Positions 7,595-64,000 are shown, counted from the first letter of the stretch. The stretch is DNA of 64,000 bases from Chromatiales bacterium (GCA_020445605.1 JAGRGH010000054.1:18705-82704); one strand, 5' to 3'. Translations and numbers: made by a program. Notes: generated from the letters alone by a model not told the origin.

Positions 7595-8704
7595 TCAGAG
7601 TTCCAGAAGCCGGCCCGGATAGATCGCTCCGCTGATGGTGTTTTCGCTCGCGCCCGTGATCGATGCCAGCGCCAGCGGTCGTCCGGCCAGGCGCTCGCGG
7701 GCGAACCACGCGAATGCCGCAGCCTCGACCCAGTCCGGCCCGATGCCGAGCGCCAAGGTCGTGTCCACGGCGCATCCTGAACGGCTCGCGATGCGTTCGA
7801 GCACGAAGCGGTTGTGCGCACCGCCGCCACAGGCATGGATCGTCTGCGCCGGCGCGCAGGCACGCGCGACCGTAATGGCGGTCAGTTCCGCCAGCGTGCG
7901 CTGGATGTCGGCCGGCGGCAGTTCCAGCCCGGCCGTGCGTGCATTGAGCCAGCCGCGACTGAACAGTTCCGGACCCGTGCTTTTCGGCGCGCGCCGCGCG
8001 AAGTAGGGCTCGTCGAGCAGCCGTGCCAGCAGTTCCTCGCTGAGCCGGCCGCTGGCCGCCCACGCGCCCTGGTCGTCATAGGCGAGCCCGGCGTGGTGGG
8101 CGCGAAACCAGAGGTCCAGCAGCGTGTTGGCGGGGCCGCAGTCCGAACCCGTCGGCAGGGTGTTTTCGCCGATCGGCAGCAGCGTGACGTTCGCGATGCC
8201 GCCCAGATTCACGATGGCGCGTGACTGCGAGCGGTGCGCGAACATGCGCTGGTGGAAGGCCGGCGCGAACGGCGCGCCCTGGCCGCCGGCGGCCATGTCG
8301 CGGCGACGGAAGTCGGCGACCACCGTGATGCCGGTGCGCTGCGCGAGGCGATGCGGATCGCCGATCTGGAGCGTGAATGGTCGCGCGCCGTCCGGGCGGT
8401 GGCGAACGGTCTGGCCGTGGCTGCCGATGGCGGCAATCCGGCGCGGTTCGATTCGCAGCGCTGCGAGCAGCCCCAGCGCGGCCGCGGCGAGTTCCTCGCC
8501 GAGCCAGTGATCGGTCGCGCCGAGCAGGTCGAGTCCGTCCTCGCCTGGCTGTTGCAGCCGACGGATGTCGGCCTGCAATTCGGGCGGCAGCGCATGGCTG
8601 TGGGTCCCGACCAGCGCGGGCCGAGTGCCGGCGCAGTCGAGCAGCGCGCAGTCGATCGCGTCGACGCTGGTGCCGGTGATCAGGCCGAGGAAGAGGTCGG
8701 ACAT
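7595..8704 (-). CDS. anmK: Anhydro-N-acetylmuramic acid kinase
   Basis: MSDLFLGLITGTSVDAIDCALLD...GGGAHNRFVL: full-length AnmK signature. The anmK / M23 peptidase / tyrS neighbourhood matches Pseudomonas. Confidence 0.9.
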   Translation of the reverse strand: MSDLFLGLITGTSVDAIDCALLDCAGTRPALVGTHSHALPPELQADIRRLQQPGEDGLDLLGATDHWLGEELAAAALGLLAALRIEPRRIAAIGSHGQTVRHRPDGARPFTLQIGDPHRLAQRTGITVVADFRRRDMAAGGQGAPFAPAFHQRMFAHRSQSRAIVNLGGIANVTLLPIGENTLPTGSDCGPANTLLDLWFRAHHAGLAYDDQGAWAASGRLSEELLARLLDEPYFARRAPKSTGPELFSRGWLNARTAGLELPPADIQRTLAELTAITVARACAPAQTIHACGGGAHNRFVLERIASRSGCAVDTTLALGIGPDWVEAAAFAWFARERLAGRPLALASITGASENTISGAIYPGRLLEL

Positions 8705-8752
8705 GGGGTGGCGCGAGTAGCGGAGCAGTACCCCGGGCGGCGCGCAGACGGA

Positions 8753-10087
8753 CTAGGGCGCGGCGCTCGCGAACAGGGTGCGGCCGAGCAGATCGAGCTG
8801 GGCCAGCAGCGGTGCGGACTCGGCCTCGAACGCCTCGCGGTATTCCGGCGCGATCGGCTCGGCGCTCGGCAGTTTCACGCGCTGCGGATTGACGTGACTG
8901 CCGTTGACGCGGAACTCGTAATGCAGGTGTGGCCCGGTGGCGAGCCCGGATTGGCCGACATGGCCGATGATCTGACCCTGGCGGACCCGCTCGCCTTTAG
9001 CTGAACCCTTGCCGTAACGCGACAGGTGCGCATACAGCGTCGAGCGGCCGTTCGCATGCTTGATCTCGACCGTGCGACCGTAACCGCCCTTGGTGCCGCG
9101 GAACTCGATCGTGCCATCGCCCGCGGCGCGCACCGGGGTGCCGGTTGCGGCCGCGTAGTCGACGCCCTTGTGCGCACGGATCTTGTTGAGGATCGGATGC
9201 TTGCGCCCGAGGCTGAAGCCCGAGGTGATGCGCACGATGTCGATCGGGTTGCGCAGGAAGGCCTTCTGCATGCGCTTGCCGTCGGGCTGGTAGTAGCTGC
9301 TGCGTCCGCGTGAGTCGGTAAAGCGCAGGGCGCGCAGGACGCGGCCCTGATTGACGAACTCCGCGGCGATCAGGTCGCCTTCGCGCAGCCGTTCGCCGTC
9401 CATGTAGAGTTCGTCGTAGACGACCGTGAAGGTGTCGCCGGCGCGCAGCTCCTGCGCGAAGTCGATATCCCAGCCGAACACATCGGCGAGCTGCATGATC
9501 AGGCCGTCGCTGAGTCCCGCGCGCTGGCCGGCGTCGAACAGCGAGGAGTCGATGGTCTCGGACACCCAGGTCCGGCGGCGCTCCACGTCCTGCTCGATGC
9601 GCTCGAAGCGCCAGCCGTCGTCGGCACGCTGGGCGGCGAGCGTGATGATCGGATCCGGGAGGACTTCCAGACGCTCCAGCCGGCCGTCCTCGACCGTCCC
9701 CAGCCGCACGGTCTGGCCCGGGTGCAGATTGGCCATCTCGCGGGTTTCGCGGCCCAGTTCCATGATCTCGTGCAGGGTCCGGGCGCTGACCCCGGCGCGC
9801 TGGAACAATGCGGCAAGGTTGTCACCGCTGGCGACCGTGAATTCGGTCCATTGCCGGGCATCGGCAACCGGGGCGGGATCGCCGGGCGCGGCGCTGCTGG
9901 TGGCCGGCGGCAGTTGCAGCGGGATGACGATGCGCCCGGTTGCCGGGGCCGTTGTGCCGGAGTCGTCGCCGCCGATCAGATACCAGCCGGCCGCACCGAG
10001 GGCCACGACCACAACCAGCGCGGCGATCAGGCCGCCGCGTGAGCGCTTGGGGGGTGTCGGGTCCAGTCGGGCGCTGTAGTCTCGCAT
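8753..10087 (-). CDS. M23-family peptidoglycan DD-metalloendopeptidase with OapA/LysM-like N-domain
   Basis: HKGVDYAAATGTPVRAAGDGTI...YGRTVEIKHANGRSTLYAHLS...GPHLHYEF (M23 zinc ligands HxxxD and HxH). N-terminal TM plus LysM/OapA-like segment. Start at MRDYSARLD (10087). Confidence 0.85.
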   Translation of the reverse strand: MRDYSARLDPTPPKRSRGGLIAALVVVVALGAAGWYLIGGDDSGTTAPATGRIVIPLQLPPATSSAAPGDPAPVADARQWTEFTVASGDNLAALFQRAGVSARTLHEIMELGRETREMANLHPGQTVRLGTVEDGRLERLEVLPDPIITLAAQRADDGWRFERIEQDVERRRTWVSETIDSSLFDAGQRAGLSDGLIMQLADVFGWDIDFAQELRAGDTFTVVYDELYMDGERLREGDLIAAEFVNQGRVLRALRFTDSRGRSSYYQPDGKRMQKAFLRNPIDIVRITSGFSLGRKHPILNKIRAHKGVDYAAATGTPVRAAGDGTIEFRGTKGGYGRTVEIKHANGRSTLYAHLSRYGKGSAKGERVRQGQIIGHVGQSGLATGPHLHYEFRVNGSHVNPQRVKLPSAEPIAPEYREAFEAESAPLLAQLDLLGRTLFASAAP

Positions 10088-10245
10088 GATCAGATCGTCG
10101 CAAGCTGCTGGACGAAAAAGGTTTTTACGACCGCGGCCGTTCTGGGCGGGCACGGTACCTGATTCGCCCGCGCACCCGCAAGCGGCATGACGGCGTGGCC
10201 GCGTTGCGGTAGAGTCGCTGCGCCCGCGCACGACCCCGGCGATCC

Positions 10246-11439
<1,194 letters not shown>

Positions 11440-11470
11440 ACGTCAGAACGAGGCCGAGGTCGGAGGGCGT

Positions 11471-13195
<1,725 letters not shown>

Positions 13196-13217
13196 GCGGC
13201 CGCGCCAGCAGCAGTTC

Positions 13218-47367: not shown

Positions 47368-48066
47368 ATGAGAGCATTACCGCTGCAACGCGGAGCGGCT
47401 ATTGGCCTGCTGATCCTTGCGCTGTCCGCCACACCCGCCCGGGCGACTTTGATCGACAACCTCGACGGTACGGTGTTGGACGACGTAAGTGGATTGGTTT
47501 GGACGAAGAACGCGAATCTCGCGGCGAGCAACACCTTCGGTGTGGGCGGCATCGCTGCTACCGGGAGGATGACCTGGGACACCGCCCAGGCGTGGATCGC
47601 GGCGATGAACGCGGCGAACTATCTGGGCTTCAACGACTGGCGACTGCATACGATCACCGACACCGGCGCGCCGGGCTGTGACTTTGCCTTCACGGGTACG
47701 GATTGCGGCTACAACGTGGATCTGGGCACGGGAGAACTCGCGGACCTGTGGTACCGGGCCCTGGGTAACATCCCTTACTACGACACCAGCGGTAACGGAC
47801 CCCAGGCCGGCTGGGGCCTGACCAACACCGGCCCGTTCGACAATATGCAGTCCGACTACTATTGGTCGGGTACCGAGTACGCACCCAGTACCGTTAACGC
47901 GTGGACCTTCCACACGGACCGCGGCTACCAGGACCTCAACCTTAAGACCAATCTCTTCTATGGTTGGGCGGTTCGTACCGGCAATGCCGGCGTACCGCTG
48001 CCGGGAACGGCACTGCTGCTGGGGCTGGGGTTGCTCGGCCTGACGGCACGTCGCCGTCTTGCGTGA
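47368..48066 (+). CDS. Secreted DUF1566 domain protein with PEP-CTERM-like C-terminus (VPLP variant)
   Basis: Signal peptide. LIDNLDGTVLDDVSGLVWTKNA...FNDWRLHTI...YYWSGTEYAPSTVNAWTFHTDRGYQD...YGWAVR (strong DUF1566 pattern). C-terminal GVPLPGTALLLGLGLLGLTARRRLA. Confidence 0.7.
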   Translation: MRALPLQRGAAIGLLILALSATPARATLIDNLDGTVLDDVSGLVWTKNANLAASNTFGVGGIAATGRMTWDTAQAWIAAMNAANYLGFNDWRLHTITDTGAPGCDFAFTGTDCGYNVDLGTGELADLWYRALGNIPYYDTSGNGPQAGWGLTNTGPFDNMQSDYYWSGTEYAPSTVNAWTFHTDRGYQDLNLKTNLFYGWAVRTGNAGVPLPGTALLLGLGLLGLTARRRLA

Positions 48067-48076
48067 CCCCGGCGCC

Positions 48077-48345
48077 GTAGGGTGCGTACCACGCACCATT
48101 TTCGGCGCATGATCACTCCATACGGTGCGCCGTGCGCACCCTACTCACACCGCACATGTAGGGTGCGTACCACGCACCGCATACGGCATTTCAGACTTCC
48201 GGTGCGCCGTGCGCACGCTGCCCACACCGCACATGTAGGGTGCGTACCACGCACCATATCCGGCGCGTGATGATTCGACTCGGTGCGCCGTGCGCACCCT
48301 ACTCACTGGCGGCTGGCTCCGCTGCGCCGTTCGCACCCTGCCCAC
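48077..48345. repeat. Three and a partial fourth tandem copies of an ~80-bp REP-like element, each with imperfect inverted repeats
   Basis: gtagggtgcgtaccacgcacc at 48077, 48158 and 48235. Its imperfect reverse complement cggtgcgccgtgcgcaccctac(tcac) at 48123, 48200 and 48281, with a degenerate copy at 48319. Period 77-81 bp. Intergenic between the PEP-CTERM gene and cinA. Confidence 0.7.
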
Positions 48346-48508
48346 AGTGCACACCTGCGCAATGCGCGCCGTTTGCGCGGCGCCTGGCCGGCGGGTCGGA
48401 ATACTCGGACACGACTCCGTCAAATCAGCCGACAAGCGGTCCGTGCCGGCCTGCTAGACTTCCGGCGGTGCGATTTGCAGTCTGGCCCCGCTGCCCCCGG
48501 AGCGTGTC

Positions 48509-48994
48509 TTGAGCGACCTTCTCAACCTGCTGGTGAGTTTCGCCGGAGAGCGGCTGGTCGCGCGCGGCTGGAAGCTGGCCGTGGCCGAATCCTGCACCGG
48601 CGGGTGGATCGGCAAGGCCATCACGGATGTCTCGGGCTCCTCGGCCTGGTTCGAGCGCGGCTTCGTGGTCTACAGCAATCAGGCGAAGGTCGACCTGCTC
48701 GGGGTGAAGCCGGCGACGCTGGAGGCCTATGGCGCCGTCAGCGAGCCCACCGCCCGCGAGATGGCGGACGGCGCGCTGGCGCGCTCGCGCGCGCAACTCG
48801 CCGTGGCGGTCACCGGCATTGCCGGCCCGGACGGCGGCAGCCGCGAGAAGCCCGTCGGCACGGTGTTTCTGGCCTGGGCCGCGCGCGACGAGGAGACCCG
48901 CGTGCAGCGCATGCGCTTTCTCGGCGATCGTGCCGAGGTGCGGCTGCAATCGGTGCAATCCGCGCTGCAGGGGGTCGTGGACCTGCTGTCCTGA
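48509..48994 (+). CDS. CinA C-terminal-domain protein (PncC-like NMN deamidase)
   Basis: [39 protein letters not shown]...[12 protein letters not shown]: CinA_C signature. Short form upstream of recA, as in Pseudomonas. TTG start. Confidence 0.8.
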
Positions 48995-49042
48995 TCCGGC
49001 CCGCGGCCGGCCGTCCTGCCGCCGTTGCGTCGCGACGCCCGG

Positions 49043-49062
49043 TTACTGTATGTTTAACCAGT
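49043..49062 (+). promoter_or_regulatory. Putative LexA (SOS) box upstream of recA
   Basis: TACTGTATGTTTAACCAGTA is a palindromic CTGT-N8-CCAG, one mismatch from the gammaproteobacterial CTGT-N8-ACAG consensus. It lies 58-77 nt upstream of the recA ATG. Confidence 0.55.
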
Positions 49063-49119
49063 ATCGGCCTGCGAGCGAACGGGCCACCCGAAAACAAGCT
49101 GCCAAAGAGAGTTTCAACG

Positions 49120-50160
<1,041 letters not shown>

Positions 50161-54106: not shown

Positions 54107-54228
54107 GGCCGAATCAGGGAGTCGACGTTCGTCCGGGGGGGGGCGGAACTGGCAATTTCTGTAATTATGGATTATGAATATACCTCCAGAGCGCGGTTGA
54201 GCCCGGCCCCGCGACTGCACCGGAACCG

Positions 54229-54906
54229 ATGATCGAACCCCTTGCCCAGCGCCCGTTGTATCTCGATGTCGCCGACCGCGTGCGCGAGCTCATCTATCGC
54301 GCGGAACTCAAGCCGGGCGACTGGATCGACGAGCCGGTCCTGTGCGCGCAGCTCGGTATCAGCCGCACGCCGTTGCGCGAGGCGCTGAAGGTGCTGCATG
54401 CGGAGAACCTCGTGGAACTCGTGCCGCGCCGCGGCTGCCGCGTGAATGCGCTCGACGACGAGGCCCTGCTGGAGCTGTTTCCGGTCATGGCGAGTCTCGA
54501 GGCCCTGTGTGCCCGATTCGCCACGCAAAAGCTGCGACCCGCGGAGCTGAAGCGCCTCGAGCGCATCCATGCCCGCCTGGAGGAGTTCGCCGAGGCCCAG
54601 GATGTCGATCGTTACTACGAGGCCAATCGCGAGTTCCATCGGGCGATTCAGGATCTCGCCGCGAACCGCTGGCTGCATCGCATCACCGGCGAACTGCGCA
54701 ACGTGCTGGTGTTGGCACGGCATCGGCAGCTGACCATGCCCGGTCGGCTGAACGCCTCGCTTGCCGAACATCGCGAACTGATGCGCGCGCTGCGGATCGG
54801 CGATGCCGATGCCGCCTACCGTGCCATGCATGAGCATCTGTGTCGTCAGGAACGCGCCCTGCGGGCCGCACCGGATGACAGTCCGCGCACGGTGGCGCGG
54901 GCCTGA
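54229..54906 (+). CDS. GntR-family (FadR/FCD subfamily) transcriptional regulator, probable malonate-cluster regulator
   Basis: N-terminal wHTH (EPVLCAQLGISRTPLREALKVL) plus FCD C-terminal domain. Lies at the head of the TRAP/matA/matB cluster; MatR in Rhizobium is a GntR regulator. Confidence 0.85.
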   Translation: MIEPLAQRPLYLDVADRVRELIYRAELKPGDWIDEPVLCAQLGISRTPLREALKVLHAENLVELVPRRGCRVNALDDEALLELFPVMASLEALCARFATQKLRPAELKRLERIHARLEEFAEAQDVDRYYEANREFHRAIQDLAANRWLHRITGELRNVLVLARHRQLTMPGRLNASLAEHRELMRALRIGDADAAYRAMHEHLCRQERALRAAPDDSPRTVARA

Positions 54907-54996
54907 GGCAGCGGAGACGTTCCGTGACGAATTGATTGTCGACCACCAATAATCGTGACGATGCCAATCGTCGCGCACAACCCCGAGGAGTGAATC

Positions 54997-55995
54997 ATGA
55001 TCAAGCTGAAGAAACTGGCCGTTGCGGCGGCCACGGTCGTGGTGCTGGGTAGTTCCGGTTCGGCGAACGCCCTTGAACTGCGTGCCTCGCATCAATGGCC
55101 GGGCGGTACCGGCGATATCCGCGACGAGATGGTCCAGATCATCGCGCGGCACATGTCGGCCAACAGCACCGGCGTTGACATCAAGGTGTACCCCGGCGCC
55201 AGTCTGTTCAAACCGAAGGAGCAATGGGGCGCGATGACCAAGGGTCAGCTCGACATCACCGCCTTTCCGCTGGACTATGCCGGCGGCCGACACCCCGAGT
55301 TCAACCTGACGCTGATGCCTGGTCTGGTCAAGAACCACGACCACGCAGCGCGCCTGAACAGCTCGGCGTTCATGCGCAAGATCAAGGCGATCATGGAAGA
55401 GCAGGGCGTCATGGTGCTGGCCGACACCTGGCTCGCCGGTGGTTTCGTGTCGAAGAAGAACTGCATTCTCGAACCGGACGACGTCAAGGGGCAGAAGTTC
55501 CGCGCCGCCGGCAAGGCCTTTGACCAGATGCTCGCCGCAGCCGGCGCGACCATCTCGTCGATGCCGTCGTCGGAAATCTACACCGGCCTGCAGACCGGGG
55601 TGCTCGATGGCGCCAATACTTCGTCCGAATCGCTCGTTTCCTACCGGCTGTACGAGCAGGTCTCGTGCCTGACCGCACCCGGCTCAAGCGCACTGTGGGT
55701 CATGTACGAGCCGATCCTGATGGCGAAGAGCAGCTTCGCAAAGCTCTCCCCCGCGCAGCAGCTCGAGCTGATGAAGGCTGCCGGCAAGGCCGAGCAATAC
55801 GCCCTGGAACAGGCCAAGCATGCCGATACGCAATTGGTGGAGACCTTCAAGAAGGCGGGCGTGAAGGTGGTCGAGATGACCGACGAGCAGGCTGCCAAGT
55901 GGCGCAAGATCGCTGATACCTCGAGCTACAAGGCGTTTGCCGACAACGTGAAAGGCGGTCGCGAACTGCTCGACATGGCGCTGTCGGTGGAATAG
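54997..55995 (+). CDS. dctP: TRAP transporter solute-binding protein DctP family
   Basis: Signal peptide and DctP fold (ELRASHQWP...); GAGGAG RBS upstream. Confidence 0.9.
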   Translation: MIKLKKLAVAAATVVVLGSSGSANALELRASHQWPGGTGDIRDEMVQIIARHMSANSTGVDIKVYPGASLFKPKEQWGAMTKGQLDITAFPLDYAGGRHPEFNLTLMPGLVKNHDHAARLNSSAFMRKIKAIMEEQGVMVLADTWLAGGFVSKKNCILEPDDVKGQKFRAAGKAFDQMLAAAGATISSMPSSEIYTGLQTGVLDGANTSSESLVSYRLYEQVSCLTAPGSSALWVMYEPILMAKSSFAKLSPAQQLELMKAAGKAEQYALEQAKHADTQLVETFKKAGVKVVEMTDEQAAKWRKIADTSSYKAFADNVKGGRELLDMALSVE

Positions 55996-56069
55996 CCGTC
56001 TGCGAGGGATGCCGCTCTGCCACGCGAGCGGCATCCCGGCTGTTCAATCGAACCGCTGGATACCCGACA

Positions 56070-56609
56070 ATGAACTTCTGCATCGATGTTTACCTGAAAG
56101 CGGTTGAGGGGCTGTCGCGTCTGCTCGGTTATATCGCCGCGCTGCTCCTGATCGTTTCCGTGGTCGTCGTCTGCCAGATGGTGTTCGTACGCTTCGTGCT
56201 GAACGAGCCAACGCAGTGGCAGACCGAATTCGTGACCTACGCATTGCTGGCGTCAACCTTTATTGGCGCGCCGTGGGTGCTGCTGAAACGGGGCCATGTG
56301 TTTGTCGAGCTGGTGCCGATGATGCTTGGCGCGCGCGGACGATTCCTGATGGCCTTGCTTGCCTACGTCGTCTCCGCCGCGTTGTGCATCATGCTGACGT
56401 GGTACGGGTTCGAGTTCTGGAAAGAGGCGTGGGATGGCGGCTGGACATCGGAGAGTATCTGGGCGCCCAAGCTGTGGAAGGCCTATGCGGCGATGCCAAT
56501 TGGATTTTTCGCCATCAGCCTGCAATACATTGCGGACGTGATCTGCCTGCTGAACGGGCGCGATCACCCGTTTGGACTTGAACCCGCCACGCCCCCGGAG
56601 GTGTCCTGA
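56070..56609 (+). CDS. dctQ: TRAP transporter small permease DctQ family
   Basis: 4-TM, 179-aa protein located between dctP and dctM. Confidence 0.8.
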   Translation: MNFCIDVYLKAVEGLSRLLGYIAALLLIVSVVVVCQMVFVRFVLNEPTQWQTEFVTYALLASTFIGAPWVLLKRGHVFVELVPMMLGARGRFLMALLAYVVSAALCIMLTWYGFEFWKEAWDGGWTSESIWAPKLWKAYAAMPIGFFAISLQYIADVICLLNGRDHPFGLEPATPPEVS

Positions 56610-57925
56610 TGGACCCGTTGAGCATGGGCGGGATCGCCGCGCTGACCCTGATCGTGATGCTGTTGATCGGCATGCCGGTCGCCTTCGCGCTGGGTGCGAC
56701 GGCGGTTGTGTTTCTGCTGATCGAGAGCGGGCCCGGGAGTTTCTCGGTGCTCGCCGAGACCCTGTTCGGATCGCTCAATGAGTTTGCATTGCTGTCGATC
56801 CCGATGTTTCTGGTCATGGGTGCGGCGATCGCGGCGTCACGCGCGGGAGCTGATCTCTATGAGGCGATCGACCGCTGGCTGTACAAGGTGCCCGGTGGTC
56901 TGCTGATCTCGAACATCGGCGCCTGCGGTATCTTCGCCGCGCTGACCGGCTCGTCGCCGGCGACCTGTGCCGCGATCGGCAAGATGGGCATCCCGGAGAT
57001 GCGCAAGCGTGGCTATCCGGCGAGCCTTGCGACCGGTTCGATCGCCGCCGGCGGCACGCTGGGCATCCTCATTCCGCCGTCGATCACGATGATCGTCTAT
57101 GGCATTTCCACCGAAACCTCGATCGGCCGCCTGTTCGCGGCCGGCCTCGTGCCGGGCCTGATGTTGATCGCCCTGTTCATGGCCTGGTCACTGTTCTACG
57201 CCTACAGCAAGGGCTACCGGTTCACCGAGGCGGACAAGCATTTTTCGCTGCGTGACAAGCTGGTCATCCTGCCCAAGGTGCTGCCGTTTCTGACCATCAT
57301 CGTGCTCGTGCTGTGGGCGCTGTACGGGGGGGTCGCGACGCCGTCGGAGGCCTCGGGCGTCGGCGCCATGGTGTGCCTGTTGTTGGTCATCATCATCTAC
57401 CGCGTGTGGCAGCCGAGAAAGCTGTGGGAGATCGTCAGTTCGGCGACGCGCGAGTCTGTGATGCTGATGATGATCATCGGCATGGCGGGCCTGTTCAGCT
57501 ACATGATGTCGAGCCTGTACATCACACAGGGCATCGCGGAATACATCGCTGGGCAGGATCTGGACCCTTGGCTTCTGATGCTGTATGTGAACCTGTTTTT
57601 GCTGGTGGCCGGGTTCTTTCTACCGCCGGTCGCCGTCATTCTCATGACGGCACCAACCCTGGTGCCGATCGTGATCGCGGCCGGGTTTGATCCGATCTGG
57701 TTCGGCGTGATCCTGACGCTGAACATGGAGATCGGGCTGATCACCCCGCCGGTCGGCCTGAACCTCTATGTGATCAACGGCATCGTGCCGGATGTCAGCC
57801 TGAAGACGATTCTCATCGGCGCATTACCGTTCATGCTGTGCATGGTGCTGGGCATCGTGTTGCTGATCCTGTTCCCGAAGATTGCGCTGTGGCTGCCGGA
57901 CGTGCTGATGGGTCCGGTGCGTTAG
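56609..57925 (+). CDS. dctM: TRAP transporter large permease DctM family
   Basis: 438-aa 12-TM DctM signature (LSIPMFLVMGA..., GSIAAGGTLGILIPPS). ATG overlaps the dctQ stop. Confidence 0.9.
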   Translation: MDPLSMGGIAALTLIVMLLIGMPVAFALGATAVVFLLIESGPGSFSVLAETLFGSLNEFALLSIPMFLVMGAAIAASRAGADLYEAIDRWLYKVPGGLLISNIGACGIFAALTGSSPATCAAIGKMGIPEMRKRGYPASLATGSIAAGGTLGILIPPSITMIVYGISTETSIGRLFAAGLVPGLMLIALFMAWSLFYAYSKGYRFTEADKHFSLRDKLVILPKVLPFLTIIVLVLWALYGGVATPSEASGVGAMVCLLLVIIIYRVWQPRKLWEIVSSATRESVMLMMIIGMAGLFSYMMSSLYITQGIAEYIAGQDLDPWLLMLYVNLFLLVAGFFLPPVAVILMTAPTLVPIVIAAGFDPIWFGVILTLNMEIGLITPPVGLNLYVINGIVPDVSLKTILIGALPFMLCMVLGIVLLILFPKIALWLPDVLMGPVR

Positions 57926-57946
57926 TTGCGCGATGCGCCCAAGTCC

Positions 57947-58657
57947 ATGTCGCCACGGGCATTGCTCTTCGATGTGTTCGGCACCTGTGTGGACTGGTAC
58001 GGCGGCGTGTCACGCGCGGTTGCTGCTGCGTTCGCCGCAGATGGCCTTGTCGCGGATGCGGCGAGCTTCACGCTGGCCTGGCGCAGGGCGTATTTCGACG
58101 GCATGGCCGAGGTGCGCGCCGGCCGCGCACCGTGGCGCCGCATCGACTCGATTCACCGCGATGCGCTTGATGCACTCATCGCGGAGAACCGTCTGGATGC
58201 GCTCTCCGCAGGTGATCGTGAGCGGCTTGCCCGCGCGTGGCACGCACTGGACCCGTGGCCGGACGTCGGTGAAGGGCTTGCGCGAGTCCGCGCACACCGA
58301 TGGGTTGCGACCCTGTCGAACGGCAACCTGGATCTGCTCATCGACCTCGCGCGGCACGGTGGGCTTGCCTGGGATGCGCTGTTCTGCTCCGACCTGTTCG
58401 GCTGTTTCAAGCCCGATCCGCGAACCTATCTCGGCGCGTGCCGGCTCATGGGGCTTGAGCCCGGGCAGGTCATGATGGTGGCCTGCCATCGTTCGGATCT
58501 CGACGCCGCGGCGCGATCCGGTCTGCGTACGGTATTCGTTGCGCGACCCATGGAATACGGCGGTAAAACCCAGGCCGATTGCGCGAACGAAGGTGAATTC
58601 GATCTCGTCGTGGCTGGGTTCACGGAACTTGCCGCGCGTCTGGAGACGATGCAGTGA
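57947..58657 (+). CDS. HAD-superfamily hydrolase, (S)-2-haloacid-dehalogenase-like
   Basis: ALLFDVFGTCVDW (motif I, nucleophile Asp), SNGN, and C-terminal D-containing motifs. Confidence 0.65.
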   Translation: MSPRALLFDVFGTCVDWYGGVSRAVAAAFAADGLVADAASFTLAWRRAYFDGMAEVRAGRAPWRRIDSIHRDALDALIAENRLDALSAGDRERLARAWHALDPWPDVGEGLARVRAHRWVATLSNGNLDLLIDLARHGGLAWDALFCSDLFGCFKPDPRTYLGACRLMGLEPGQVMMVACHRSDLDAAARSGLRTVFVARPMEYGGKTQADCANEGEFDLVVAGFTELAARLETMQ

Positions 58658-60060
58658 GTGCGCGTGGCTGGTTCGAGCGCCTGCTCGACACCGTGGCCGA
58701 TCATGGCCGCGATCTGATTGGCCTGCGCGATCCTGACGAACGCGATGCGCCGTCGAATGCCGAGCTGTGCCACCGACTGGTCGACGGTGTGGGCGAGGCA
58801 TCGAATATCGCGCTGGCGCGCGAAATCCTTCAGCGCTGGACGGGCATGGACGAGGTCGGGCGGCGTGAGTTCGTCAATCTGCTCGCGGTCGAGTTCGATC
58901 CGGATCCGGACGCCATCGTCCGCGCGGCGGGTGCGTACCGTGCGCGCGATCCCGAGCGCCTGCGCGAGCTGCTCGAAGCGACCGAGCCACCGCGCCAGGA
59001 ACTGTTCCGGCGCCTGAACATGGCGCCGGGCGGCACCAAGGTTCTCGTCGACATGCGATCCTTCCTGCTGGGTGAACTGCGCGAACATCCGGAGTTCCGC
59101 AACGTCGATGCCGATCTTCAGCATCTGCTGGGATCGTGGTTCAACCGTGGCTTTCTGCGTCTAGAGCGCATCGACTGGAATTCGCCTGCGGAGATACTGG
59201 AGCAGCTCATTCGCTACGAGGCCGTGCACCCGATGCGCGGCTGGGACGACCTGCGTCGCCGGCTCGCTGCGGACCGCAGGTGTTTCGCATTTTTTCACCC
59301 CGCGCTCGCGCAGACACCGCTGATCTTCGTCGAGGTTGCGCTGACCAGGGGCGTCAGTGCTTCGATCGCGCCGCTGATCGATCCGCAGGCGCCGATTGCC
59401 GATCCCGCGATTGCCGACACCGCCGTGTTCTATTCCATCAACAACGCGCTGACGGGCCTGCGCGGCGTGAGCTTCGGCAACTTCCTGATCAAGCAGGTCG
59501 TCACGGAACTCGGCGCCGAGTTTCCGGACATCGATACATTCGTGACCCTGTCACCGGTCCCCCGCATGCGCAGCGCGCTCGGCGAGTTGCTTGGACAGGA
59601 CTCTGCCACCGCGGATGAATTGCGCCTGCTGCTGGCCCGGCACCAGGCGGCGCTCCGGGAAGCCAGCGCCTGTGACCAGCCGCTCGCGGCGCTGGACCGG
59701 TTGCTGGAGCGAGACCTGCCAAGGGAATTGACCGGATTCGTCGGCGCGGTGCTGCGCGAGCTTGCGCTGTTCTACCTCCTGCGCATGAAGCGCCGCGCTC
59801 ATGCCGTGGACCCGGTGGCGAATTTTCACCTCTCCAACGGCGCGCGACTGGAACGCATCAATACCGTCGCGAACCCCTCTGAACGCGGCCGGCGCGAGTC
59901 CTGGGGCTGCATGGTCAATTACCGTTACGACGGCGCCACTGTGGTCGAGAATCACGAGGCCTACGTCGGCGAAGGAAAGATCGCGCTGTCAAAGGAACTG
60001 GATCGCCTGAATCGACAGCTCGCAAGTGTCCTGACACGTGAAGCCTCGGAGGTGCACTGA
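58654..60060 (+). CDS. matA: Malonyl-CoA decarboxylase
   Basis: VFYSINNALTGLRGVSFGNFLIKQVVTELGAEFPDIDTFVTLSPVP closely matches the MCD catalytic region (compare human MLYCD [29 protein letters not shown]...LSPIP). GTG start overlaps the HAD stop. Confidence 0.85.
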   Translation: MSARGWFERLLDTVADHGRDLIGLRDPDERDAPSNAELCHRLVDGVGEASNIALAREILQRWTGMDEVGRREFVNLLAVEFDPDPDAIVRAAGAYRARDPERLRELLEATEPPRQELFRRLNMAPGGTKVLVDMRSFLLGELREHPEFRNVDADLQHLLGSWFNRGFLRLERIDWNSPAEILEQLIRYEAVHPMRGWDDLRRRLAADRRCFAFFHPALAQTPLIFVEVALTRGVSASIAPLIDPQAPIADPAIADTAVFYSINNALTGLRGVSFGNFLIKQVVTELGAEFPDIDTFVTLSPVPRMRSALGELLGQDSATADELRLLLARHQAALREASACDQPLAALDRLLERDLPRELTGFVGAVLRELALFYLLRMKRRAHAVDPVANFHLSNGARLERINTVANPSERGRRESWGCMVNYRYDGATVVENHEAYVGEGKIALSKELDRLNRQLASVLTREASEVH

Positions 60061-60081
60061 CATGGGCCCCTGGCAACCGAC

Positions 60082-60879
60082 ATGCAACTGCTGACGCTGT
60101 TGGCAGCGGGCGCGGCGGCTGGCACCGCGGCAGGCCTGCTCGGCATCGGTGGCGGGGTCATCATCGTGCCCGTGCTGTCGCTGGTGTTTGCGGCCGAGGG
60201 CGTCGATCCGGCGATCCTCATCAAGGTCGCCGTCGGTACTTCGCTGGCGACCATCGTCGTCACGGCCATTTCATCGGTGTGGGCGCACCACCGCCGCGGC
60301 GCCGTGCGCTGGAACCTGGTCAGGGTCATGACGCCGGGCGTGGTCGTCGGTTCGCTGTTCGGTGCCTGGCTCGCCGACCTTGTTCCCGCCTACTGGCTGA
60401 CCATTGCGTTCATCGTTTTTCTCGTCGGCGTTGCGCTGCAGATGGCCTGGGGACCGGTCCGCGCGCACGGCGAACTGCCCGGGCCGATGCGCCTGCGTGG
60501 CGTGTCCGCCGTCGTCGGTTCGATCTCCGCGTTGATGGGTATCGGCGGCGGCGCCCTGCATGTGCCATACCTGAGCTGGCATGGCGTGCCGGTCAAACAG
60601 GCGATCGCGACCGCCGCATCCATCGGCTTTCCGCTGGCGCTGGCCTCGAGCATCGGCTTCGTGCTGACCGGACTAGACGAACCAAACCTGCCGCCGCACA
60701 GTCTCGGCTACATCAACCTGCCGGCGTTTGCCGGCGTGGTGACCGCGAGCATTCTGTTCGCGCCGCTCGGTGCGCGACTGGCGCATCGCTTGCCGGACAA
60801 GGTGCTGAAGCGCTCGTTTGCGGTGTTCCTGTTCATTCTGGCCATGCGCATGGCCTACGACTTCGTGCTCAAACCATGA
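60082..60879 (+). CDS. TauE/SafE-family anion exporter-like membrane protein
   Basis: LGIGGGVIIVPVL ... MGIGGGALHVPYL: duplicated 4-TM TauE/SafE signature. Confidence 0.8.
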   Translation: MQLLTLLAAGAAAGTAAGLLGIGGGVIIVPVLSLVFAAEGVDPAILIKVAVGTSLATIVVTAISSVWAHHRRGAVRWNLVRVMTPGVVVGSLFGAWLADLVPAYWLTIAFIVFLVGVALQMAWGPVRAHGELPGPMRLRGVSAVVGSISALMGIGGGALHVPYLSWHGVPVKQAIATAASIGFPLALASSIGFVLTGLDEPNLPPHSLGYINLPAFAGVVTASILFAPLGARLAHRLPDKVLKRSFAVFLFILAMRMAYDFVLKP

Positions 60880-62399
60880 ACGACGAAAACCTTTACCTGC
60901 GTTTTGCGCGCGAGCGCTTCGCGCATGGCGGCGACCGCGACTTTCTGATGTCGCCCGGTCGCAGCGCGCTGCGCTATGCCGAACTCGATGCGGTGACCGG
61001 CCGCATGCAAAGCCGTCTATGCGATCTCGGTGTGCTGCCCGGTGACCGGGTGATGGTGCAGGCCGGAAAGTCCGCCGAGGCCGTGGTGTTGTATCTCGCC
61101 TGTCTGCGCGCCGGGGCGATCTACATTCCGCTGAACACGGCGTATACCGCGGCGGAGATCGAATATTTCATGGCCGACGCCGAACCACGGCTGTTCGTAT
61201 GCCAGCCAGAGACCGAACCCGGACTCGCAGCCGTGGCGAAACGCGTCGGCGTGCCGCATCTGCGCACGCTCGGCATGGCCGGTGACGGCAGCCTGCTGAA
61301 CGCGCTGGATGCGCTCGATCCGCAACCTGCCGTGGTGCCGCGCGCTGGCGATGATCTGGCCGCGATTCTCTATACGTCGGGCACGACCGGTCGATCCAAG
61401 GGCGCGATGCTCAGTCACGCAAATCTGCAGTCGAACGCCGAGGCGCTGTACGAGTACTGGCAATGGCGCGATGACGATGTGCTGCTGCACGCATTGCCGA
61501 TCTTCCACGTGCACGGGCTGTTCGTCGCCCTGCACTGCGCGCTGCTGGGTGCCTCGCCGGTACATTTTCTGCCGCGGTTCGATCCGGCCGAAGTCATCGC
61601 GCGGTTGCCACGCAGCACGGTGATGATGGGCGTGCCGACGTTCTACACACGATTGCTCGCAACGTCGGCGTTCACCGCCGATGTGTGTGCAGGCATGCGC
61701 CTTTTCATCGCGGGTTCCGCGCCGCTGCTTGCCGAGACCCACCGTGAGTTCGAGGCACGCACCGGCCATCGCATCCTCGAACGTTACGGCATGACCGAGG
61801 CGGGCATGATCACCTCGAACCCGTACGCCGGCGAGCGGCTGGCCGGCACGGTTGGTTTCGCGTTGCCGGGCGTGAGCGTGCGCATTGCCGACGAACAGGG
61901 ACGTGAAGTGCCGCGCGGGGAGACCGGTGTGCTGGAACTCACCGGTCCGAATGTATTCAAGGGCTACTGGCGCATGCCGGAGAAGACCGCCGCGGAGTTT
62001 CGCGCGGACGGCTGGTTCATCTCCGGCGATCTCGCGACCATGGATGAGTCCGGGCGGGTCAGTATCGTCGGCCGCGCGAAGGACCTGATCATCTCCGGCG
62101 GTTACAACATCTATCCGAAAGAAATCGAGGGCGAGATCGACGCGGTCCCCGGCGTGCGCGAGTCTGCCGTGGTCGGTGTGCCGCATCCGGATTTCGGTGA
62201 GGGCGTGGTGGCGGTGGTCGTGGCCGATGGCAGCCGGTCGCTTTCCGAAGCCGATATTCTCGCCCCGTTGCAGGGCCGGCTCGCGCGTTTCAAGCAGCCC
62301 AAGCGTGTGTTTCTCGTCGACGAACTGCCGCGCAACACCATGGGCAAGGTACAGAAGGCCCGGCTTCGCGAAACCTACAGGAATCTTTTCCCGTCATGA
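60876..62399 (+). CDS. matB: Malonate--CoA ligase (malonyl-CoA synthetase)
   Basis: Near co-linear with Rhizobium MatB: AILYTSGTTGRSKGAMLSHANL (AMP-binding), HALPIFHVHGLFVA, YGMTE, GPNVFKGYWRMPEKTAAEF, GYNIYPKEIE, PRNTMGKVQK. ATG overlaps the TauE stop. Confidence 0.9.
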   Translation: MNDENLYLRFARERFAHGGDRDFLMSPGRSALRYAELDAVTGRMQSRLCDLGVLPGDRVMVQAGKSAEAVVLYLACLRAGAIYIPLNTAYTAAEIEYFMADAEPRLFVCQPETEPGLAAVAKRVGVPHLRTLGMAGDGSLLNALDALDPQPAVVPRAGDDLAAILYTSGTTGRSKGAMLSHANLQSNAEALYEYWQWRDDDVLLHALPIFHVHGLFVALHCALLGASPVHFLPRFDPAEVIARLPRSTVMMGVPTFYTRLLATSAFTADVCAGMRLFIAGSAPLLAETHREFEARTGHRILERYGMTEAGMITSNPYAGERLAGTVGFALPGVSVRIADEQGREVPRGETGVLELTGPNVFKGYWRMPEKTAAEFRADGWFISGDLATMDESGRVSIVGRAKDLIISGGYNIYPKEIEGEIDAVPGVRESAVVGVPHPDFGEGVVAVVVADGSRSLSEADILAPLQGRLARFKQPKRVFLVDELPRNTMGKVQKARLRETYRNLFPS

Positions 62400-62866
62400 G
62401 CGAACATTCCGGTGAGCAGGCCGGGCCCGGCCTCATGCCGCGCGCGGTGCTCGAACAACGCATCCTGGAGGGCATTCCGCTGGCGACGGCGATGAACTTT
62501 CGCGTCATGGAACTGGACGACACTTCGATCACGGTCTGTGGCGGCGGCAACCAGAACATCAACGTACATGGCACGGCATTTGCGGGTTCGCTGTATGCCG
62601 TCTGCACGCTAGCGGCCTGGGGGCTGGTCACGGCGCGATTGCCGGAAGGCGCCAGCGTCGTCATGCAGGAAGGTGCGATCCGCTATCGCAGACCGGTGAT
62701 CGGTGACATCGTCGCGCGCTGTGAACTCGATGCCCAGACGCTCGACTCATTCGTGGATACGGTCGCCCGCACGGGTCGCGGTCGCATTCAGGCCGAGATC
62801 ATCGTGCCCGCTGAAAAAGGTCCGGCCGTTGAGTTCATGGCGACTGTCCATGCGCGCATGCCGTAA
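62396..62866 (+). CDS. Hotdog-fold thioesterase-like protein (YiiD C-terminal domain family)
   Basis: 156 aa with central GTAFAGSLYAVCTLAAWGLV typical of YiiD_C/PaaI-like hotdog domains. ATG overlaps the matB stop. Confidence 0.55.
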   Translation: MSEHSGEQAGPGLMPRAVLEQRILEGIPLATAMNFRVMELDDTSITVCGGGNQNINVHGTAFAGSLYAVCTLAAWGLVTARLPEGASVVMQEGAIRYRRPVIGDIVARCELDAQTLDSFVDTVARTGRGRIQAEIIVPAEKGPAVEFMATVHARMP

Positions 62867-62884
62867 CGTACAGGAACGCAGAAC

Positions 62885-63865
62885 ATGCAGATCAAGGCCA
62901 TTCGCATGCACGCCCACGGCGGACCAGAGGTACTGCGCTGGGAAGAGGTCGAACTCGTCGAGCCTGGCCCGGGCAGCGTGCGGGTGCGTCACCATGCGGT
63001 GGGCCTGAACTACATCGACGTCTATCACCGCACGGGGCAGTACCCGACGCCGTCTCTGCCCTGCACGATCGGGATGGAGGCCGCCGGGGTCGTCGAGGCC
63101 CTCGGGGATGGTGTCGGCACGCTCGCCGTGGGCGATCGTGTGGCCTACGCCACACCGCCGCTCGGTGCCTATGCCGAGGCGCGCAATCTGGCCGCGGACC
63201 GGCTCGTGAGACTGCCCGATTGCATATCGTTCGAAACGGGCGCGGCCATGATGCTCCAGGGCATGACGGTGGAATATCTGCTGCGCCGAACGTATCCGTT
63301 GCAGGCCGGGCAGACCGTACTGTTCCATGCCGCGGCCGGCGGCGTGGGTCTGATCTTCTGTCAGTGGGCGCGACAGATCGGCGCGACGGTGATCGGCACG
63401 GTCGGCAGCGCGCAGAAGGCCGACCTCGCGCGGGCGCATGGTTGTACGCACACCATTCTCTATCGCGAAGAGAACGTGGTGGAGCGCGTACGCGAATTGA
63501 CCGGTGGCAAGGGTGTCGACGTGGTCTACGACGGTGTCGGCAAGGATACCTGGATCACCTCGCTCGACAGCCTGCGCGTGCGCGGGATGATGGTGAGTTT
63601 CGGTAGTTCCTCGGGCAAGGTGCCGCCGCTGGAACTGGCCGACCTCACCTCGCGCGGCTCGCTGTACCTGACCCGCCCGACCCTGATGACCTATACCGCG
63701 GCGCCGGATGAGTTGCAGGCCAGCGCGGCCGCGCTGTTCGGCATGGTCGATCGTGGCATCGTTTCCATTCCGGTGAACCAGCGTTATCCTCTGGCGCAGG
63801 CCTCCGACGCCCACCGGGCGCTGGAGGCGCGCGAGACCGTTGGTTCCAGCGTGCTGGTGGTCTGA
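62885..63865 (+). CDS. qor: NADPH:quinone oxidoreductase (zinc-independent MDR family)
   Basis: MQIKAIRMHAHGGPEVLRWEEVE..., GxGxxG-like AAGGVGL, and size (326 aa) typical of Qor. Confidence 0.85.
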   Translation: MQIKAIRMHAHGGPEVLRWEEVELVEPGPGSVRVRHHAVGLNYIDVYHRTGQYPTPSLPCTIGMEAAGVVEALGDGVGTLAVGDRVAYATPPLGAYAEARNLAADRLVRLPDCISFETGAAMMLQGMTVEYLLRRTYPLQAGQTVLFHAAAGGVGLIFCQWARQIGATVIGTVGSAQKADLARAHGCTHTILYREENVVERVRELTGGKGVDVVYDGVGKDTWITSLDSLRVRGMMVSFGSSSGKVPPLELADLTSRGSLYLTRPTLMTYTAAPDELQASAAALFGMVDRGIVSIPVNQRYPLAQASDAHRALEARETVGSSVLVV

Positions 63866-63872
63866 GATCGAG

Positions 63873-63935
63873 AGCAGCCAGCAGCCAGCAGCCAGCAGCC
63901 AGCGGCCAGCAGCCAGCAGCCAGCAGCCAGCAGCG
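63873..63935. repeat. Heptanucleotide tandem repeat (AGCAGCC)x9 with two single-base variants
   Basis: 4x agcagcc, 1x agcggcc, 3x agcagcc, 1x agcagcg, read directly from the sequence. Lies between the qor stop (63865) and the next ATG (63970). Confidence 0.85.
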
Positions 63936-63969
63936 AGCCTAAGGTAAACCAGACTCTGGGGGAGGACCC

Positions 63970-64000
63970 ATGATTCAGAAACTTGGCGCCTGCATGCTCG
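63970..64000 (+). CDS. Start of an unidentified gene (MIQKLGACML..., partial)
   Basis: ATG at 63970 preceded by GGGGGAGGA. Only 10 codons are inside the window. Confidence 0.35.
   Translation, partial: MIQKLGACML

Follow-up and report, generated by a model that had tools for sequence, protein, structure and literature searches.

Malonate occurs commonly as a metabolite in plants and sediments, and it inhibits succinate dehydrogenase. The known routes for its use are MatAB and the Mdc/Mad multi-enzyme decarboxylases. In PMC5237526 two mat systems are cited. These are matRABC of Rhizobium leguminosarum, which encodes the GntR-type regulator MatR, MatA, MatB and the carrier MatC (An and Kim 1998), and matPQMAB of Sinorhizobium meliloti with a tripartite ATP-independent periplasmic (TRAP) importer and the GntR-type regulator GtrA (Chen et al. 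2010). The matPQM genes of S. meliloti have been employed for malonate uptake (PMC13134296). Here we analyzed a stretch of 64,000 nucleotides from a Chromatiales bacterium (GCA_020445605.1, JAGRGH010000054.1:18705-82704), referred to as the window, which carries a related gene cluster at positions 54229-63865. With a probability of roughly 70% we read this cluster as a malonate operon in which MatA is accompanied by a MadB-type decarboxylase coupled to MatB, with a TauE permease and a HAD hydrolase as accessory members and Qor as a loose neighbour.

The cluster consists of ten consecutive genes on the + strand, and the family assignments are firm according to curated cut-offs. The genes are:

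54229-54906, + strand: gntR, GntR/FCD regulator (MatR/GtrA-like), first gene of the unit (PF00392, 64 bits; PF07729, 94 bits)
54997-55995, + strand: dctP, dctP-type TRAP solute-binding protein, MatP-like (PF03480, 157 bits; NF037995, 140 bits, cut-off 50)
56070-56609, + strand: dctQ, TRAP small membrane subunit (PF04290, 99 bits)
56609-57925, + strand: dctM, TRAP large permease, start overlapping the dctQ stop by 1 nt (TIGR00786, 363 bits, cut-off 268)
57947-58657, + strand: HAD type II hydrolase, carbon-attacking (L-2-haloacid dehalogenase/cis-epoxysuccinate hydrolase clade), mat-linked subgroup (TIGR01428, 161 bits, cut-off 125)
58654-60060, + strand: matA, malonyl-CoA decarboxylase (MCD), GTG start, GTGA overlap with the HAD gene (PF05292, 312 bits; PF17408, 95 bits)
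60082-60879, + strand: tauE, TauE/SafE (TSUP, DUF81) anion permease (PF01925, 188 bits, residues 6-257 of 265)
60876-62399, + strand: matB, malonyl-CoA synthetase, ATGA overlap with tauE (NF005702, 794 bits, cut-off 558)
62396-62866, + strand: MadB-like hot-dog protein (YiiD_C/Mad), predicted malonyl-thioester decarboxylase, ATGA overlap with matB (PF09500, 106 bits, cut-off 27; TIGR02447, 99.3 bits, cut-off 97.1)
62885-63865, + strand: qor, NADPH:quinone oxidoreductase (NF008024, 409 bits, cut-off 348)

Four of the nine junctions are overlaps, namely dctQ/dctM (1 nt, TGATG), HAD/matA (GTGA), tauE/matB and matB/hot-dog (both ATGA). The remaining five are gaps of 90 nt (gntR-dctP), 74 nt (dctP-dctQ), 21 nt (dctM-HAD and matA-tauE) and 18 nt (hot-dog-qor). 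A terminator scan of the region gave eight terminator-like hits, all of them intragenic, compared with a shuffle expectation of 5.6 +/- 2.7.

The locus was compared with two sets of loci. The genome set comprised 80 matA loci, one genome per species, which were searched with the ten window proteins. The metagenome set was obtained by a scan with an alignment of mat-linked hot-dog proteins, and the 80 returned loci were re-annotated. Individual loci are here given by number (L001 and so on). The gene block recurs with protein identities of 53-85% in independent genomes and metagenomes, and the arrangement is far beyond chance.

A preliminary description of this stretch had listed the same ten genes in the same order, with a TRAP transporter and a GntR regulator beside matA and matB and with TauE between the two. 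All of this was recovered by the family matches, and the slot of TauE was found again in other loci. The identity of matA and matB, on which the description had staked its interpretation, was borne out as well (see below), and the comparative genomics of mat loci it had proposed gave the recurrence just mentioned. A single operon, as it had suggested, is plausible, with all genes on one strand and no convincing terminator found. Its statement that all genes are joined by overlaps of 1-4 nt is correct for the four junctions named above and incorrect for the five gaps of 18-90 nt.

The core of the locus consists of the regulator, the transporter, MatA and MatB. MatA reached 352 bits against the bacterial MCD structure PDB 4KSA, and its N-terminus MSARGWFERLLD is conserved among orthologues. 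MatB reached 633 bits against MatB of Rhodopseudomonas palustris (PDB 4FUQ). The DctP protein of the window is 52-80% identical to matA-adjacent DctP proteins of other loci, and DctM is 58-85% identical to DctM proteins adjacent to matA/matB in Gamma- and Alphaproteobacteria. For the matAB-adjacent TRAP genes of Neorhizobium, Pelagibius and Granulosicoccaceae the identity of DctM was 58-64%. The 80 matA loci showed the order TRAP-matA-matB both in Alphaproteobacteria (Neorhizobium, Pelagibius) and in Gammaproteobacteria, and matA-matB alone in Bosea and Pseudomonas. Since the order recurs, MatA and MatB are assigned to the known mat system together with the regulator and, as putative malonate importer, the TRAP transporter. 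The locus is probably a malonate uptake and breakdown operon of known type.

The hot-dog protein encoded behind matB had been called a thioesterase in the preliminary description. It belongs to PF09500 and matches the structures PDB 8AYV, 3LMB, 1T82 and 1SH8. According to Whaley et al. 2021 (PMC8666670), YiiD of Escherichia coli (MadA) and MadB of Shewanella oneidensis, a stand-alone protein (PDB 1T82), act as malonyl-acyl carrier protein (malonyl-ACP) decarboxylases, and both also decarboxylate malonyl-CoA. That paper names Asn45 of the active-site loop as essential and Asn43, His47 and Thr49 as important, and it describes a hydrogen-bond network of Pro39, Asn43 and Ser54 at the loop base of S. 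oneidensis MadB as well as the mutants N43A, N45A, H47A, T49A, S54A and D79A. The loop of the window protein, N54-I-N56-V-H58-G-T60-A-F62-A-G-S65, corresponds to N43/N45/H47/T49/F51/S54 of this enzyme. Its catalytic residues are invariant in 35 matB-linked homologues (34 loci and the window protein). Pro39 of the loop base is not kept. Here, the clade of the window protein carries Gly-Gly-Gly at positions 49-51, compared with Ala-Pro-Leu in unlinked members (Ala in 27 of 27, Pro and Leu in 81%).

Among the characterized thioesterases the protein matched PaaI only, with E-values of 0.09-0.47. At E <= 0.001 no Pfam thioesterase family of the 4HBT type was found, only YiiD_C and DUF4442. Membership in PF09500, the intact Mad loop and the E-value of 0.09 for PaaI argue against a thioesterase. 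By current sequence evidence the protein is thus no thioesterase and belongs to a family that has been demonstrated experimentally to decarboxylate malonyl-ACP and malonyl-CoA.

In total, 142 homologues of the hot-dog protein were recovered, many of them from marine sulfur oxidisers, both symbionts and free-living species; an identical protein is assigned by NCBI to a MAG (metagenome-assembled genome) of a Chromatiales bacterium. Within the open-access literature that could be searched, no paper connects MadB or YiiD_C to malonate, to MatB or to mat operons, and the Mad papers found there are silent on such contexts. Likewise, the open-access literature held no relevant description of malonate in Thiodiazotropha. 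As a side observation, the 3265-aa protein P0344 of the representative library gave 19 partial YiiD_C profile matches and may be repetitive or mis-assembled.

Across the two sets a MadB-like gene was located directly after matB in 34 loci; 28 loci were without matB and 27 had too little upstream sequence. In a neighbour-joining tree the linked hot-dog proteins fell almost exclusively into two clades apart from the unlinked ones. An NTGA overlap (ATGA, GTGA or TTGA) joins the stop codon of matB to the start codon of the hot-dog gene in the majority of the linked loci. The two genes also stay together where the surroundings change. The operon of L001-L003 is broken up, with matB and the hot-dog gene jointly relocated behind a gene for an old yellow enzyme (OYE) reductase; in L001 the pair thereby belongs to a separate operon. 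In L102 (4468-6429) and L105 (2-1060) both are fused in frame; the open reading frame (ORF) of L102 encodes 653 aa with the domains AMP-binding, AMP-binding_C and YiiD_C. The assemblies of the two fusions are separate and differ by 1 base in 1029. Furthermore, a MAG of Candidatus Thiodiazotropha lotti (L175) carries the pair alone between dnaE and accA-tilS (8475-13212), with no transporter, matA or tauE within 10 kb. Its MatB and hot-dog protein are 69% and 57% identical to those of the window. We conclude that matB makes up a conserved module together with the MadB-like gene, and that the two are translationally coupled. That this module works without a nearby matA in some lineages is the best explanation of these findings.

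The distribution of matA points in the same direction. L102 and L125 have the composition DctPQM-TauE-MatB-hot-dog with no room for matA, and L116 has TauE-MatB-hot-dog followed by a CitMHS transporter, again with no matA. In L090 the spacer of 300 nt between dctM and tauE contains a matA remnant (3040-3130), about 40 codons from the C-terminal end of the gene. The relic encodes ...SWRCMVNHRYGQAAMVAHHEA... and matches the C-terminus of MatA (in the window ...SWGCMVNYRYDGATVVENHEA...), while tauE, matB and the hot-dog gene are intact with 55-78% identity. In the lineage of L090 matA was thus deleted. Both matA and the hot-dog gene are present in L177 and in the window. Together with a locus that carries matA and no hot-dog gene (see below), matA and the hot-dog gene occur either singly or both, which would be expected of two enzymes with the same job. 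From this pattern and the coupling to the CoA-forming MatB, decarboxylation of malonyl-CoA appears to be the best reading of the hot-dog protein.

Several observations weigh against this interpretation. The characterized members of the family prefer malonyl-ACP, and S. oneidensis MadB has a Km > 5 mM for malonyl-CoA (PMC8666670). The alignment of linked and unlinked Mad proteins revealed no convincing active-site position that separates the two groups, so a preference for CoA is unsupported by sequence. The cultured Thiosocius teredinicola (L176, CP019936, 4115994-4137511, complete genome) carries DctPQM-MCD-TauE-MatB with a divergent GntR gene and no YiiD_C gene; the pathway can therefore do without the hot-dog gene. 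The loci lacking matA come from metagenome contigs or from one MAG contig, and matA could be located elsewhere in these genomes. The fusion goes back to two fewer T in a T-run when compared with the unfused relative P0386, which is 98% identical. Profile and fusion-protein searches, judged on the 150 best hits out of 2,493 family representatives, gave no MatB-YiiD_C fusion beyond L102 and L105, and the fusion is recent and rare. Additionally, the roles assigned to TauE and the HAD protein (see below) are drawn from family membership and position.

The first two of these points would agree with the hot-dog protein being a true malonyl-ACP decarboxylase. FabD would then charge ACP under the flood of malonyl-CoA produced by MatB, and the hot-dog protein would convert excess malonyl-ACP into acetyl-ACP, which primes fatty-acid synthesis and frees ACP, while MatA alone would carry the catabolic flux. 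Some of the gene neighbourhoods speak for this as well. In L102 (6426-9061) and L125 (6426-11511) the mat module lies directly upstream of pabC-like, mltG/yceG and tmk genes, in L125 also of holB and tatD, and in Ca. T. lotti the pair lies next to accA. The order pabC-mltG-tmk-holB (after fabF) and the surroundings of accA are fatty-acid-synthesis neighbourhoods in E. coli-like gene orders. However, the TRAP-TauE-MatB-MadB loci without matA (L102, L125) and the locus with the matA relic (L090) would then lack an in-locus route to acetyl-CoA. Moreover, coupling and fusion to a CoA-forming enzyme fit a shared CoA intermediate better. We consider a role restricted to malonyl-ACP rather unlikely and favour malonyl-CoA as the substrate.

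The gene tauE lies between matA and matB. To our knowledge no member of the TSUP family has so far been connected with malonate. The gene occupies this slot, or directly precedes matB where matA is missing, in over 20 loci at 51-82% identity. The values were 77-82% in the relatives of the window and 51-66% in more distant Gammaproteobacteria, and the slot is occupied in T. teredinicola, too. The TSUP family is poorly characterized, with members linked to the export of sulfite, sulfoacetate and 3-sulfolactate (PMC10413263) and one member proposed as 2-oxobutyrate transporter in the methylcitrate cluster of Neisseria (PMC12671195). The most economical guess from these features is that TauE moves malonate or a similar small anion.

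The sulfonate links of TSUP relatives raise the question of the substrate, which might be another short dianion such as methylmalonate, sulfoacetate, tartronate or similar instead of malonate. Sulfoacetate is an isostere of malonate, and the JGI annotation names close relatives of MatB malonyl-CoA/methylmalonyl-CoA synthetase. However, MatB of the window is far above the cut-off for malonyl-CoA synthases and very close to the R. palustris structure, and an MCD is present. The TRAP genes are orthologous to matAB-adjacent ones of rhizobial-type loci, and the locus contains no gene of the sulfoacetaldehyde pathway. We regard a dianion other than malonate as very unlikely.

The HAD gene precedes matA. 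Its ORF opens at a TTG codon (57926), whereas orthologues and the public gene call begin at ATG 57947. The best matches in the PDB were 3UMC (PA0810), 3UMG (Rha0230) and 8WMT (RhCESH[L], an enzyme of the cis-epoxysuccinate hydrolase type, CESH); the classical L-2-haloacid dehalogenases (L-DEX; 1JUD, 1QQ5, 2NO4) reached 35-64 bits only. Asp9, Arg46, Ser124/Asn125, Lys155, His181 and Glu203 are present, and the second Asp of phosphatases is absent. The motifs FDVFGT, WRRAY, LSNGN and FKPDP were found together with equivalents of Arg41, Ser118 and Lys151 (L-DEX YL numbering). The halide pocket of L-DEX YL, formed by Ser175 and Asn177, is by eye not matched, and the region reads V-A-C-H-R-S-D. D9, H181, E203 and R46 align with D18, H190, E212 and R55 of RhCESH[L], for which an Asp-His-Glu triad and an Arg of the cap domain have been described (PMC10869282). 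A cis-epoxysuccinate hydrolase was rejected as candidate, with F11, F50 and S183 in the window protein in place of the substrate binders Q20, R59 and Y192 of CESH[L].

The 25 best homologues of the HAD protein, including all verified mat-linked ones, share the signature WRQAYFDG and CHR[S/G/K]D. More distant homologues carry WRAGYAPA and AAH[P/N]xD instead. Given the conserved triad and the signature of its own, the mat-linked proteins represent a distinct and, as far as residues tell, catalytically complete subgroup. The gene is confined to the nearest relatives of the window (L001-L008, L172) and is lacking in L088, L009 and all more distant loci. Where present, even at an identity as low as 53%, it always separates dctM from matA and overlaps with the start of matA. 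Two of the distant homologues, from Rubrivivax and Elioraea (54-55% identity), have gene neighbourhoods unrelated to this one, which offered no hint of the substrate. Judged by its residues, the enzyme would be expected to act on a small acid and to break a C-X bond or a strained C-O bond at its C2. Malonate is readily halogenated at C2 by hypohalous acids. The extra Arg prompts the speculation that a halomalonate or a comparable dianion is the substrate.

The preliminary description had combined the two proteins into a CoA-recycling or proofreading shunt of thioesterase and HAD enzyme. Alternatively, a halogenated or substituted malonate would be converted via X-malonyl-CoA and X-acetyl-CoA into X-acetate by the thioesterase and further into glycolate by the dehalogenase. 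PF09500 is still named 'putative thioesterase', the HAD protein passes the cut-off for haloacid dehalogenases type II, and its closest solved relatives (3UMC, 3UMG) are annotated as haloacid dehalogenases in the PDB. However, the activity demonstrated by experiment for the hot-dog family is that of a decarboxylase, and the only match of the PaaI type was the weak one given above. Both proteins also do not co-vary, since the hot-dog gene is found in dozens of mat loci without the HAD gene. The shunt has lost its basis with the assignment of the hot-dog protein to the Mad family, and we hold either version of it to be highly improbable. The HAD protein is a genuine carbon-attacking enzyme of type II, so a halogenated or other 2-substituted acid may be its substrate, but nothing ties it to the hot-dog protein.

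The last gene, qor, had been included as a cluster member. The gene is indeed present, yet recurs in a subset of loci only. Within the metagenome set it was found after the MadB-like gene in L088 (72% identity), L091, L092, L093 and L095, and it is absent from this slot in L004, L007, L172 and L177. A view based on the genome set, namely that qor is never conserved, was dropped after qor had been found behind the hot-dog gene in these five metagenomic loci. Qor is a loosely associated neighbour, recurrent and not universal. L001-L003 and L172 carry an OYE reductase gene beside the cluster, and other loci have neither OYE nor qor. Genes for OYE-type FMN reductases or aldehyde dehydrogenases were observed at the edges of mat clusters in L001 (4990-6006), L172 (1002-2126), L004 (4203-5696) and L116 (957-2552); these could relate to a source of malonate semialdehyde or to electrophile stress.

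HAD, TauE and Qor might also be passengers without a role in malonate use that are kept by operon inertia. The restriction of the HAD gene to the closest relatives would fit this, as would the differences in Qor and OYE between loci and the equally similar HAD homologues in unrelated contexts. However, TauE keeps its slot at 51-82% identity across families, including the loci without matA, and the HAD gene keeps both its coupling to matA down to 53% identity and its own conserved signature. We consider it improbable that all three are passengers, and prefer the reading of TauE and the HAD protein as accessory members of the malonate operon.

Three further features concern the expression of the operon:

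54161-54183, no strand assigned: putative GntR operator, AT-rich palindrome GTAATTATGGATTATGAATATAC, motif conserved upstream of gntR
54931-54950, no strand assigned: second palindrome ATTGATTGTCGACCACCAAT within a promoter-like site (54924-54953) of the gntR-dctP spacer, not conserved in related loci
56006-56037, + strand: dctP-dctQ intercistronic hairpin, 12-bp perfect G+C-rich stem with 8-nt loop

The gene gntR has an equal position and strand in L001, L004, L009, L012, L017, L172 and L173. It is co-directional with the other genes in the window and divergent in T. teredinicola and the alphaproteobacterial loci. The motif upstream of it, with the consensus TGTAATTAnTAATTATGAATTA[C/T], was found in seven loci, where the rest of the spacers could not be aligned. 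In L017, an Oceanospirillaceae MAG, it forms a perfect palindrome of 22 bp. Within the window of 64 kb (65% G+C) it occurred once, at 54161-54183, compared with 0 expected matches. The putative operator overlaps a promoter-like site identified by eye, with TGGCAA (54150-54155), a spacer of 17 nt and TATGAA (54173-54178). A conserved palindrome at a single site over a promoter-like site points to an autoregulated unit headed by gntR, and the palindrome is likely to be the corresponding promoter/operator. The palindrome of the gntR-dctP spacer was rejected as operator, since it is not conserved in relatives and the motif that is conserved precedes gntR. Just 5' of the putative operator and promoter, nine consecutive G residues (54135-54143) form a tract that could be prone to slippage.

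The dctP-dctQ spacer folds with -36.4 kcal/mol (z = -4.1). Since its hairpin lacks a T-tract, a role in processing or stability is more probable than one as terminator. The pattern would be typical of differential expression of binding protein and membrane subunits. An Rfam scan of the region gave no element. The G+C content over dctPQM (55000-58000) is 0.61-0.63, compared with 0.65-0.69 in the flanks, which may be due to membrane-protein composition or to a separate origin of the transporter genes.

Around the locus, which we take to be chromosomal, housekeeping genes are found, encoding elongation factor G, RecA, RNase II and a NupC-type transporter. The recA ORF (48283-50160) is listed with 625 aa; its RecA domain starts at residue 286 and the true start is therefore probably internal. 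An ORF at 47368-48066 encodes a protein with Lcl_C and PEP-CTERM domains. On the 3' side a rhodanese gene starts at 63970. The spacer between qor and this gene contains a tandem repeat of 7 nt (AGCAGCC, 9.4 copies, 94% matches) at 63873-63938.

From these data the following course of events can be proposed. The GntR/FCD repressor would bind the AT-rich palindrome over its own promoter, and malonate or a derivative would release transcription. Malonate would be imported by the MatPQM-type TRAP transporter, activated to malonyl-CoA by MatB and, as predicted for MatA, decarboxylated to acetyl-CoA. The matB-coupled hot-dog protein, a predicted malonyl-thioester decarboxylase of the MadB type, would most likely decarboxylate malonyl-CoA as well. 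The TauE-family permease may be a conserved accessory member that lets malonate or another small anion of this kind pass, and the HAD protein a lineage-specific accessory hydrolase attacking C2 of a small substituted acid. The gene identities, catalytic residues, synteny, coupling, fusion, matA relic and operator motif were directly observed; we infer all activities, the inducer and the preference of the hot-dog protein for CoA or ACP.

A more far-reaching version is tentative, and we give it somewhat less than an even chance. Here, the mat-linked YiiD_C protein would be a malonyl-CoA decarboxylase that replaces the MCD/MatA in a non-homologous manner and forms, with MatB, a minimal module from malonate to acetyl-CoA. 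The subgroup of HAD proteins with an extra Arg next to the catalytic His would hydrolyse a 2-substituted dicarboxylate, for example a halomalonate. Three findings on the pair suggest the replacement of MatA: its isolated position in Ca. T. lotti, its fusion in one lineage and its persistence after the deletion of matA.

If the hot-dog protein does decarboxylate malonyl-CoA, it would represent a third and very small enzyme solution for the use of malonate (about 145 aa), and the role of the Mad family would widen beyond the initiation of fatty-acid synthesis. The annotation 'thioesterase domain-containing protein' in JGI and some NCBI records (otherwise 'YiiD C-terminal domain-containing protein' at NCBI) would then be corrected. 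The enzyme would also be a compact part for engineering the levels of malonyl-CoA and acetyl-CoA. The operon-borne TauE offers a handle on the poorly understood TSUP family, and its presence in the cultured T. teredinicola provides a ready system.

Compared with matPQMAB and matRABC, the locus of the window shares the GntR-type regulator, MatA, MatB and the order transporter, matA, matB, and its MatPQM-type TRAP transporter is a putative malonate importer. It differs in the regulator, which is co-directional, the first gene and provided with a conserved palindrome of its own. Absent from the described mat systems are TauE between matA and matB, the HAD gene coupled to matA and the Mad-family hot-dog gene coupled to matB.

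With MadA and MadB the hot-dog protein shares the stand-alone hot-dog format, a size of about 145-156 aa and the identical loop N-x-N-x-H-x-T-x-F-A-G-S (PMC8666670; for Xanthomonas MadB PMC12093956). However, the characterized enzymes act in the initiation of fatty-acid synthesis and lie in unrelated gene neighbourhoods, whereas the window protein is translationally coupled to matB in a malonate operon, and its clade carries GGG at the loop base in contrast to A-P-L in other Mad members. TauE shares Pfam family and size with TauE of Cupriavidus necator and kbuT of Neisseria, of which the latter is a precedent inside an organic-acid catabolic cluster (PMC10413263, PMC12671195); it is peculiar to the mat loci considered here that tauE sits between matA and matB and is coupled to matB by an ATGA overlap. 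The HAD protein has the type II fold, the Asp nucleophile, the cap Arg, the Ser/Asn, the Lys and the water-activating His-Glu pair in common with PA0810 (3UMC), Rha0230 (3UMG) and RhCESH[L] (8WMT; PMC10869282), but is set apart from these by WRQAYFDG and CHR[S/G/K]D and by the lack of Q20, R59 and Y192 of CESH. In summary, the core of the locus is ordinary, the comparative data support the new reading of the hot-dog protein well, and the novelty lies in three additions to a mat operon: a predicted decarboxylase of the Mad family coupled to MatB, a TSUP permease inside the operon and a HAD type II subgroup of its own.

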